DNA from: a virus
Lineage: Duplodnaviria > Heunggongvirae > Uroviricota > Caudoviricetes
Length of the DNA: 10,025 bases
Strand: one strand, 5' to 3'
Virus record (IMG/VR): IMGVR_UViG_2693429733_000018
The position numbers were made by a program, and so were the translations under genes. Positions 2,142 to 3,673 of this stretch are shown here, in pieces. The stretch's first letter is position 1. Each line of letters starts with the position of its first letter. The notes under the pieces are model-generated. The model saw only the letters and a list, made by a program, of their open reading frames with translations, had not been told where the DNA came from and searched no databases.

Positions 2142-2145
2142 TTTA
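2123..2145 (+). terminator. Intrinsic terminator-like hairpin (duplicate of 494-516)
   Basis: Identical hairpin CCCGC-CGCCGA-GCGGG plus T run. Confidence 0.55.
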
Positions 2146-2264
2146 TGACTGAAATCGCGTCAGTACAGTAAACGCGCTGGTGGCGGTGAATACCTGTCTT
2201 TCAGCTTGCTGGCTTTTTCGACAAGAGTTATTGGTGTGTCACGTTAACCGGAAAAGGAAAAGAC

Positions 2265-2462
2265 ATGCTAAAACAGCAGGATATGACAGAAACCGCCAGA
2301 GTGGTGTTTAATGAATTAAGCGTTACCGAACCGGCGACAGTCGGGGAGATAGCGCAGAATACTTACCTTTCACGCGAACGCTGCCAGTTAATACTGACCC
2401 AGCTGGTTATGGCGGGTCTGGCAGACTATCAGTTCGGTTGTTACAGACGCCTTCCGCAGTGA
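2265..2462 (+). CDS. Small hypothetical protein (65 aa), possibly helix-turn-helix DNA-binding, immediately upstream of the methyltransferase
   Basis: ATG preceded by AAGGAAAAG (SD-like). The segment TVGEIAQNTYLSRERCQLILTQL looks HTH-like; this is inference only. Confidence 0.4.
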   Translation: MLKQQDMTETARVVFNELSVTEPATVGEIAQNTYLSRERCQLILTQLVMAGLADYQFGCYRRLPQ

Positions 2463-2612
2463 AGGCTTTTTTATTTGTGGTAAATGGGCGGCTGGTGGGT
2501 GTTAGGGGCACCCACCAGCCATCTGCTCATGCGTTGGGTTCACAAGCAAACCTCAGGCCCACTGCTTTGCGCAAAAGCAGAATGAGCCTATCAGAGACAG
2601 GCTTAATGATCC

Positions 2613-3671
2613 ATGCTTAATACTGTAAAAATATCCAGTTGTGAGTTAATCAACGCCGACTGCCTGGAATTTATCCGGTCGTTACCCGAAAATTCTGTTG
2701 ACCTGATAGTCACGGACCCGCCGTACTTTAAAGTGAAGCCTGAGGGCTGGGATAACCAGTGGAAGGGCGACGATGATTACCTGAAGTGGCTGGACCAGTG
2801 TCTGGCGCAGTTCTGGCGGGTGCTGAAACCTGCCGGAAGTCTTTACCTGTTCTGTGGTCATCGCCTGGCATCTGATATCGAAATCATGATGCGTGAACGC
2901 TTCAGTGTGCTGAACCATATTATCTGGGCGAAGCCGTCCGGACGCTGGAACGGATGCAACAAGGAAAGCCTGCGGGCGTATTTCCCCGCCACAGAGCGCA
3001 TTCTGTTCGCGGAACATTATCAGGGGCCGTATCGTCCGAAAGATGCCGGGTATGCGGCGAAGGGCAGTGCACTGAAACAGCATGTGATGGCCCCGCTGAT
3101 TTCTTACTTTCGTGATGCGCGAGCTGCCCTGGGGATAACGGCAAAACAGATTGCAGATGCCACAGGAAAGAAAAACATGGTGTCGCACTGGTTCAGTGCC
3201 GGTCAGTGGCAGTTGCCGAATGAAAGCGATTATCTGAAATTACAGGCGCTGTTTGCCCGGGTGGCAGAAGAGAAGCATCGGCGTGGTGAACTGGAAAAGC
3301 TCCACCACCAGCTGGTGGATACGTATACCTCACTGAACCGGCAGTATGCGGAGCTGCTGAGTGAATATAAACATCTGCGGCGGTATTTTGGCGTGACGGT
3401 GCAGGTGCCGTATACCGATGTGTGGACGCATAAACCGGTGCAGTTCTATCCCGGGAAACATCCGTGCGAAAAACCGGCAGAAATGCTGCAGCAGATAATC
3501 AGCGCTAGCAGTCGTCCGGGTGACCTGATTGCAGATTTTTTCATGGGGTTGGGTTCGACAGTGAAAGCGGCACTGGCGCTCGGGCGTCGTGCAATTGGCG
3601 TTGAGCTGGAGACTGAACGTTTTGAGCAGACGGTTCGGGAAGTACAGGATTTAGTCAGCCAGAACGGATGA
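2613..3671 (+). CDS. DNA methyltransferase, beta-class (motif IV DPPY precedes motif I FxGxG); probably N6-adenine, N4-cytosine not excluded; no restriction partner seen
   Basis: N-terminal DLIVTDPPYF (motif IV) and C-terminal LIADFFMGLGST (AdoMet-binding motif I) read from the translation; about 100-aa insert between them. N6A versus N4C cannot be decided from sequence alone. Confidence 0.85.
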   Translation: MLNTVKISSCELINADCLEFIRSLPENSVDLIVTDPPYFKVKPEGWDNQWKGDDDYLKWLDQCLAQFWRVLKPAGSLYLFCGHRLASDIEIMMRERFSVLNHIIWAKPSGRWNGCNKESLRAYFPATERILFAEHYQGPYRPKDAGYAAKGSALKQHVMAPLISYFRDARAALGITAKQIADATGKKNMVSHWFSAGQWQLPNESDYLKLQALFARVAEEKHRRGELEKLHHQLVDTYTSLNRQYAELLSEYKHLRRYFGVTVQVPYTDVWTHKPVQFYPGKHPCEKPAEMLQQIISASSRPGDLIADFFMGLGSTVKAALALGRRAIGVELETERFEQTVREVQDLVSQNG

Positions 3672-3673
3672 TA

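Follow-up and report, generated by a model that had tools for sequence, protein, structure and literature searches.

The DNA methyltransferases M.EcoGII and M.EcoGI were described from prophages of Escherichia coli O104:H4 strain C227-11 (PMC5778455; EGT69837.1). M.EcoGII is a beta-class enzyme of 349 amino acids, which methylates adenine without sequence specificity. Neither enzyme gives a methylation signal in the lysogen and their constitutive expression is harmful, resulting in slow and unstable growth in the case of M.EcoGII (PMC5778455). The same study named phage 1720a-02 as the carrier of a very similar enzyme, and a role in anti-restriction has been proposed (PMC5778455; reviewed in PMC12707154). 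Here, we analyse a segment encoding a relative of these enzymes, located at positions 2142-3673 of a 10,025-nucleotide (nt) virus sequence (IMG/VR record IMGVR_UViG_2693429733_000018; hereafter the window, meaning the whole stretch), which is a section of a degenerate lambdoid prophage of the Shigella type. We consider it probable that this segment represents the promoter-proximal cargo cassette in the late operon of a lambdoid prophage and encodes a sequence-independent adenine methyltransferase of the M.EcoGII family. The methyltransferase gene is preceded by a small winged-helix open reading frame (ORF) and a structured mRNA leader, and the cassette occupies the slot between the genes of the Q antiterminator and the holin.

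Like M.EcoGII as well as M.EcoGI, the window enzyme belongs to the beta class (349-352 amino acids, with a catalytic DPPY motif, a target-recognition domain (TRD) and an FxGxG motif in this order), is encoded by a prophage without an endonuclease partner and has its close relative in phage 1720a-02. It differs from M.EcoGII in carrying Leu313 and Gly197, and its C-terminal tail (...LVSQNG) is that of the 352-amino acid subgroup. The Q-holin slot, the winged-helix ORF and the leader are not described in the M.EcoGII papers that we examined, and two papers on the genomics of Shiga toxin (Stx) phages mention methyltransferases only in passing. The promiscuous alpha-class adenine methyltransferases of phages (Drozdz et al. 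2012, cited in PMC5778455) are likewise phage-borne, of relaxed or absent specificity and presumed to act in anti-restriction; as far as they are portrayed there, their motif order (FxGxG-TRD-DPPY) is the opposite one, and their architecture is therefore unrelated to that of the window enzyme.

The com-mom module of phage Mu resembles the cassette in its way of working, rather than by membership in a common family. Here too, a toxic DNA-modifying enzyme is silent in the lysogen and expressed late (PMC12707154), while a very small ORF lies upstream and the mRNA is structured at the start codon. Mom is, however, no methyltransferase, Com is a zinc-finger rather than a winged-helix protein, and the two systems share no sequence similarity. 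In Mu, translation of the mom mRNA is blocked by a hairpin, which is opened when Com binds to this mRNA. With regard to gene order, phage 933W (AF125520) is similar to the window: the terminator of the late promoter, the tRNA promoter pT and the tRNA cluster succeed one another in the same order, and nanS-p and holin genes follow downstream. In contrast, 933W encodes a Q protein of another family, retains no more of the methyltransferase gene than its final 37 codons, upstream of pT, and carries stx in this region, whereas the window has no stx genes.

The window contains two copies of the region comprising the end of Q, a terminator, a promoter and tRNA genes, and the cassette is present in copy 2 only. 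Its elements, together with the flanking transcription signals and the cassette-free junction of copy 1, are as follows:

2046-2073 (+): putative late promoter pR' (TTGATT, 16-nt spacer, TAAATT), just 3' of the stop codon of Q copy 2; assigned from the sequence and the position in 933W
2121-2146 (+): intrinsic terminator, 7-bp G+C stem and T run, likely tR' (terminator scan)
2265-2462 (+): small ORF, 65 amino acids, predicted winged-helix protein of the stand-alone kind, listed under 'unknown function' in PHROG 331 (AlphaFold2, Foldseek, homologues)
2449-2475 (+): second terminator-like hairpin, GCCTTC...GAAGGC followed by TTTTTTATTT, overlapping the stop codon of the small ORF (terminator scan)
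2476-2612 (+): structured leader of the methyltransferase mRNA, ~137 nt, candidate cis-regulatory RNA (alignment, covariance model)
2613-3671 (+): beta-class N6-adenine DNA methyltransferase of the M.EcoGII family, 352 amino acids, frame intact (PF01555 N6_N4_Mtase, E=7.9e-42)
2715-2726 (+): catalytic motif IV, DPPY, residues 35-38 (translation)
3090-3323 (+): target-recognition domain, approximately residues 160-237 (gap-free alignment to M.EcoGII; limits from PMC11551740)
3540-3554 (+): S-adenosylmethionine (AdoMet)-binding motif I, F-M-G-L-G, residues 310-314
3674-3702 (+): tRNA promoter pT (TTGAAG, 17-nt spacer, TATTAT), beginning 2 nt after the methyltransferase stop codon (promoter scan; aligns with pT of 933W)
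492-545 (+): reference junction in copy 1, where the terminator directly abuts the tRNA promoter (sequence and alignments)

An earlier note, made from the window sequence alone, had recognized a beta-class DPPY methyltransferase and a small helix-turn-helix (HTH)-like ORF in this segment, and both assignments hold (2613-3671 and 2265-2462, respectively). The PF01555 match of the methyltransferase covers residues 29-340, and the order of DPPY (35-38) before FxGxG (310-314) defines the beta class. Among 119 diverse representatives, i.e. homologues clustered at 50% identity, the aspartate of DPPY is present in 119/119, the two prolines in 110 and 118, and the tyrosine in 111. The frame check revealed neither a frameshift nor an internal stop codon in the 352 codons, and the gene is thus not inactivated by an overlooked frameshift, an outcome that the note had named as damaging to its proposal. 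Given that 312 residues match 219 profile positions, ~90-100 extra residues are real; the internal insert of about 100 amino acids noticed before therefore exists, but it corresponds to an ordinary TRD as is normal for the beta class. In M.EcoGII, residues 160-237 form a four-helix bundle with an HTH according to the report that also describes an AlphaFold model of the enzyme (PMC11551740), and Pfam detects a weak HTH_3 match at residues 167-195 of the window protein. Among solved structures, the best matches were unnamed 'Methyltransferase' chains and M.RsrI, which cover the catalytic halves only, and none belongs to the family.

At full length, including the TRD and the charged linker, 324 of 349 residues are identical to M.EcoGII (~93%, 2 gaps). 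The M.EcoGII reference was taken from the supplement of the SUPREM paper (PMC11551740), of which our machine-read copy contained a few obvious reading errors. Judging from this comparison, the enzyme is a member of the known M.EcoGII family, and sequence-independent adenine methylation is its predicted activity. What had been called an orphan enzyme thus lacks an endonuclease partner, as neither the window nor the six S. sonnei loci (21 kb each) that encode the identical protein contain an endonuclease, but it is not new and belongs to a characterized family. It follows from the properties of this family that the lack of an attributable methylation motif, which the note would have accepted as a refutation, is uninformative: by what is known of M.EcoGII itself, the family has no motif and is silent in lysogens (PMC5778455). 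Matches to the cassette DNA are found in 249 phage records, mostly of Stx2-converting phages, with 1720a-02 as the best match (95% identity). Of 5426 complete E. coli genomes, 2021 carry the gene, at up to seven copies per genome. The exact protein is the allele of Shigella sonnei; it is encoded by strain 53G and by thousands of assemblies, and the index lists it for 4314 collection blocks.

To define the genomic slot of the cassette, we inspected 80 loci (L014-L093) with relatives of the methyltransferase (61-97% identity) from many genera of the Enterobacterales. The nearest large upstream ORF encodes a Q antiterminator in 34/66 loci, with three unrelated Pfam families represented (PF06530 in 20, PF03589 in 8 and PF06323 in 6) and DUF1133 in 13 more, and the next downstream ORF is a holin in 43/78 loci, where holins of five Pfam families are represented. 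tRNA genes 3' of the methyltransferase occur in only three Escherichia-type loci of the 80. Irrespective of the Q or holin type, the methyltransferase gene thus has its conserved place at the head of the late-operon cargo. This place fits a late expression that depends on Q, a gene that is silent in the lysogen, and methylation of the progeny DNA as a broad means of anti-restriction. We also observed a protein resembling Tad2 (Thoeris anti-defence 2) as the first ORF 3' of the methyltransferase in 7/78 loci, which suggests that the Q-holin slot collects anti-defence cargo.

The transcription signals around the cassette are in line with such an arrangement. In 933W, the stretch 3' of Q is annotated with pR', qut and a terminator, the latter at the position of 2121-2146, and copy 1 of the window contains the same putative pR' site (417-444) and an identical terminator (492-517). 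The hairpin at 2121-2146, previously termed the Q terminator, is indeed a terminator; by its position 81 nt after the Q stop codon, as in 933W, it is most likely the tR' of a short pR' transcript rather than the terminator of Q itself. In lysogens, pR' is constitutive and terminated immediately downstream (PMC7547250). A hairpin at the position of the second terminator (2449-2475) is present in most of the loci. Between tR' and the methyltransferase ATG (2147-2612), a consensus scan, which is crude, found no sigma-70-like site with at least 9/12 matches; pR' itself is missing from the scan results because its score of 8/12 is below this cut-off. Downstream of the gene, the sequence that the note had read as a tRNA promoter is annotated as 'pT; putative tRNA promoter' in 933W, which bears out that reading.

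Based on these elements, we propose the following scenario. In the lysogen, RNA polymerase starting from the constitutive pR' would halt at tR', and read-through transcription would halt at the second terminator after the small ORF. The two terminators would thereby keep the toxic methyltransferase silent. Upon induction, Q-modified polymerase would pass both terminators and transcribe the winged-helix ORF, the leader and the methyltransferase gene, ahead of the tRNA and lysis genes. Replicating phage DNA could then be heavily N6-methylated before packaging and, once in the next host, would be shielded from numerous adenine-sensitive restriction systems. The enzyme's family, the anatomy of the segment, the conserved place between Q and holin, the small protein's fold and the leader covariation are shown by the present data, whereas Q-dependent expression, a role in anti-restriction and any regulation by the leader or by the small protein are what we infer. 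Anti-restriction had also been suggested in the earlier note, and the literature favours this function as well (PMC5778455; PMC12707154).

The leader (2476-2612) is conserved in 52/80 loci. In its layout, helix P1 (UGGGC/GCCCA) closes a three-way junction with the hairpins P2 and P3, followed by the hairpins P4 and P5. An alignment of 49 distinct sequences, with slid pairing partners and shuffles as controls, supports this structure: 86% of the cells are paired, compared with 31-41% when the partners were slid, and compensatory changes are seen in 15 pairs, the slid controls having 5-9. The observed value was reached by 0/500 shuffles. In P2, 8/11 pairs covary (e.g. GGCTGGTGGGTG/CACCCGGCCAGCC is replaced by GACTGTAAAGGTG/CACCCTTACAGTC in Providencia), while 4-5 pairs of P3 change on both sides with pairing kept. 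These counts are upheld in an alignment fitted to the covariance model, which leans towards the structure by construction and contains 19 compensatory pairs. When 893 kb were searched on both strands, the model found exactly one match per locus, always ending at the ATG, with E-values of 1e-16 to 3e-38, except for two weak matches (E=0.0013) in Xenorhabdus/Photorhabdus loci, where the leader is shorter, divergent and barely detected. The leader sequence of the window folds with z = -4.8. In Rfam 15, it corresponds to no family: the scan of the whole window returned nothing at E <= 0.1 for the leader, and the best result of a focused scan reached 24 bits on the opposite strand, against a gathering score of 36.

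No Shine-Dalgarno (SD) sequence precedes the methyltransferase ATG, and an in-frame stop codon just upstream fixes the start. Two alternative pairings, AUGGGC with GCUCAU and the P3 loop with the UGAUC preceding the start codon, are maintained to 95-99% with one-sided changes only, and a switch between alternative leader pairings is possible, though conjectural. By analogy with Mu, the leader may gate translation of the toxic enzyme, with or without the small protein; given that 20 of the 52 leader loci lack the winged-helix gene, the small protein is not obligatory, unlike in com-mom. As a tentative extension, for which we would claim some plausibility and not more, the leader could represent an undescribed class of cis-regulatory RNA, in which the pairing of the invariant 5' AUGGGC with either GCCCA or GCUCAU, and of UGAUC with the P3 loop, would define ON and OFF conformers at the SD-less start, and to which the 65-amino acid protein (where present) or a ligand would bind in a Com-like manner. 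A literature search for a leader or untranslated region of M.EcoGII yielded unrelated riboswitch papers only. Two further observations concern the region next to the start codon. A GATC (Dam) site at 2606-2609, 2-3 nt before the ATG, is conserved in >90% of the leader sequences, and a hairpin formed by ATCAG/CTGAT just before the ATG was rejected as a candidate, since natural variants break it.

The small ORF upstream of the leader matches winged-helix families in Pfam (TrmB/MarR) only weakly (E=0.0026, below threshold) and no NCBIfam model. Its AlphaFold2 model (pLDDT 86) consists of three helices, H1-H2-H3, followed by a beta hairpin, and Foldseek aligned this model to the winged helices of IclR, MarR and ArsR-type regulators and of SelB with TM-scores of 0.7-0.83. 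We retrieved 334 homologues, which are 81-100% identical among those listed, from Escherichia, Salmonella, Klebsiella, Citrobacter and Buttiauxella. Homologues with identities down to 37% are located upstream of the methyltransferase in 55/80 loci, usually ending ~100-200 nt before it. On the strength of the predicted fold and this linkage, we regard the ORF as a real, methyltransferase-linked winged-helix protein. The winged-helix gene and the covarying leader seem to be the only parts of the cassette that are undescribed.

How the difference between the two copies arose can be addressed by comparing their junctions. Copy 1 consists of the end of Q, the putative pR', a hairpin (492-511) with a T run, the promoter TTGCGG-N17-TATTAT (517-545) and the first tRNA at 555, without a cassette. 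Copy 2 is colinear with copy 1 up to 2146 and again from the -35 hexamer at 3674; the extra DNA thus spans 2147-3671/3674 (~1.53 kb), with ends that are ambiguous by 2-3 nt due to a 'TAT' microhomology. The alignment agrees with the previous placement of ~1.5 kb behind the T tract of the terminator and ahead of the tRNA promoter, and the coordinates 2142-3673 are right within a few bases. The cassette is absent from copy 1 and 933W and present in copy 2, 1720a-02 and phiP27. The last 37 methyltransferase codons retained by 933W are 84% identical and directly upstream of pT (locus L013, 3967-4077), and in a metagenome contig (locus L011, 5304-5597) the left end of the cassette is joined to the last 98 codons of the gene, again directly upstream of the tRNA promoter. 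From their sequences, we interpret both 3' remnants as remnants of cassette deletion, which makes the loss of the cassette a recurrent event. The tRNA promoter and the 3' end of the methyltransferase gene, in turn, appear to have been linked to each other since the beginning. Together, recurrent loss and this tie make it more likely that copy 1 is a deletion derivative than that copy 2 arose by insertion; the copy-1 junction itself is clean and lies inside the TAT microhomology.

These findings also bear on the proposal that the segment is an inserted moron. Its presence or absence between colinear flanks stands, whereas the remnants point to loss rather than gain. A true moron would be an autonomous unit with its own promoter, expressed in the lysogen and methylating host DNA for epigenetic regulation, and the conserved TGTGRAAAT just 5' of the leader might provide a promoter for it as an extended -10 element. 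However, the scan of 2147-2612 provided no promoter-like site at its cut-off, and no hairpin with a T run is present in the 2 nt separating the stop codon (3669-3671) from pT. The GC content is 0.52 as compared to 0.49-0.54 in the flanks (cassette 0.523; Q 0.489, tRNA region 0.521, nanS-p 0.536), and no methylation signal of M.EcoGI and M.EcoGII is seen in the lysogen, while their constitutive expression does harm (PMC5778455). We therefore consider an autonomous moron improbable. Still less probable, and close to negligible in our view, is a leftover of a restriction-modification system, i.e. a site-specific enzyme that has lost its endonuclease and retained a former controller (C) protein in the form of the small HTH-like ORF. 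C proteins of type II systems are likewise small, of a DNA-binding fold and encoded just upstream of the methyltransferase, and a BsuBI/PstI endonuclease gene is found upstream in 1/66 loci. The window and the S. sonnei loci have no endonuclease beside the gene, though, the small protein is a winged helix and not the Xre-type HTH of C proteins, the context is that of a late operon with Q and holin genes as the prevailing neighbours, and the 93%-identical relative is experimentally non-specific (PMC5778455). As for the leader, its conservation could reflect a function at the DNA level, as promoter or operator of the winged-helix protein or as a recombination hotspot, or simply recent spread. 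P1 is invariant, as is the greater part of P4 and P5, so that these helices are uninformative on pairing, sequence identity is high in many Enterobacteriaceae, and in Stx2c phages homology to the window begins at the 5' end of the leader (query position 341), as would be expected at a recombination boundary. Conversely, the compensated pairs of P2 and P3 come from the distant genera Providencia, Yersinia, Ewingella, Lonsdalea and Chania, the slid controls fall far below the pairing of the drawn structure, distance and strand relative to the ATG are fixed, and 20 of the 52 leader loci have no winged-helix gene. We consequently judge a leader that is no RNA regulator to be unlikely, albeit less so than the moron.

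The most serious competitor to a functional late-operon cassette is decay. Position 313 in motif I carries leucine instead of serine in the window enzyme, owing to a single C-to-T change (TCG/TCA to TTG, 3549-3551), and a second substitution, Ser197Gly (3201-3203) in the TRD, is unique or nearly so among homologues. Since the identical protein is encoded, both changes occur in all six S. sonnei loci examined, and the protein is that of the 4314 collection blocks. Serine is found at position 313 in 112/112 close homologues; among the 119 representatives, 99 have S at this site, 7 have T, 5 have G, 2 each have Q or H, and 1 has L. The FxGxG pattern is formally kept as F-M-G-L-G, but the serine of the family-typical FxGSG is lost, which may weaken the enzyme. 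The cassette could accordingly be a remnant in a dead prophage, with an enzyme impaired by Ser313Leu in the AdoMet-binding loop and additionally by Ser197Gly; deletion remnants of the methyltransferase gene are common elsewhere, too. Against this stand the fully intact frame of 352 codons, the conservation of all remaining motif residues and the tolerance of relatives for T, G, Q or H at position 313, and we regard impairment as a substantial possibility, yet not as the favoured one. Several points weigh against the cargo-cassette reading for this particular prophage. Its host element has been broken up by insertion sequence (IS) elements (IS600, IS1, IS21), the Q gene adjacent to the cassette is a 3' fragment that starts at the junction 1709/1710, and induction may never occur. 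In addition, the assignment of pR' and qut relies on their position and on a weak match to the consensus (8/12), the TGTGRAAAT element could be an extended -10 promoter allowing Q-independent transcription, although its consensus fit is poor in many loci, and with a leucine replacing the serine that is invariant in close homologues this copy of the methyltransferase could be inactive. In this degenerate prophage of the Shigella type, it is probable that the cassette persists as a silent relic, while the late-operon cargo cassette remains our preferred explanation of the segment.

The EcoGII enzyme is sold commercially and used for chromatin and RNA footprinting. As one of thousands of copies, the methyltransferase of the window by itself adds nothing new. 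What the cassette does offer is a concrete set of parts for how phages might keep a harmful enzyme off until lysis: the position after Q, a double terminator, an SD-less start, a covarying leader and a winged-helix gene. Given that the cassette shares its slot with stx, nanS-p, tRNAs and Tad2-like genes, it also supports the view that the Q-holin region is a general hotspot for cargo and anti-defence genes of lambdoid phages. The Ser313Leu allele, which is fixed in S. sonnei, provides a natural opportunity to test what the serine of motif I contributes.

The window as a whole is a mosaic. One S. sonnei prophage remnant (prophage A type, with Q, tRNAs, the 117-amino acid ORF and IraM) matches segments 1-1709 and 3997-4827 at 98-99% identity, and a second remnant, located near ompW, matches segments 1711-4221 and 6115-10025 at 99.9% identity; in complete genomes, the two are separated by hundreds of kilobases. 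The junctions 1709/1710 and 6114/6115 are non-homologous. An exact look-up of both possible products of ORFs spanning 1709/1710 returned no record in an index of 153 billion genes, and no complete E. coli genome covers >80% of the window. The tandem layout of copies 1 and 2 may be a rare rearrangement or an assembly artefact; the cassette is unaffected by this doubt, because it sits within a colinear block of 2.5 kb. Besides a truncated IS600, a 617-amino acid nanS-p-type esterase gene, a holin gene and an IraM-like gene, the following features were located in the window:

1-452: Q antiterminator, 3' part (PF03589), copy 1
1710-2040: Q antiterminator, 3' fragment (PF03589), copy 2, starting at the junction 1709/1710
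555-807, 3712-3961 and 6121-6370: three tRNA clusters
3712-3961 (+): the cassette-side cluster with CAU (ileZ type), Arg-UCG and Arg-UCU tRNAs (ARAGORN, Rfam, 933W annotation ileZ-argN-argO)
3976-4001 (+): terminator after the cassette-side tRNA cluster
918-1271 (+): ORF of 117 amino acids (PHROG 2873)
4253-4588 (-): paralogue of the IraM-family anti-adapter (NF007393, E=6e-47)

The IraM paralogue and the 117-amino acid ORF occupy the positions of the stx genes in Stx phages. In copy 1, 8 bp between AGGT repeats are missing when 415-452 is compared with 2035-2048, while they are kept in copy 2 and in related loci; as a result, the Q stop codon of copy 1 is gone and Q is longer by 11 residues, extending into the putative pR' region. 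The third tRNA cluster has lost its pT promoter, as seen in 6040-6125, where a 5'-truncated IS600 abuts the sequence 6 nt ahead of the first tRNA. Finally, the small RNA family STnc100 (RF02076) has four full-length matches of 124-161 bits in the window (1504-1693, 4038-4227, 6447-6636 and 6914-7123) and a weak fifth copy at 6675-6848. These matches correspond to the 260-nt direct repeat family, with one copy 3' of each tRNA cluster and another one ahead of nanS-p.

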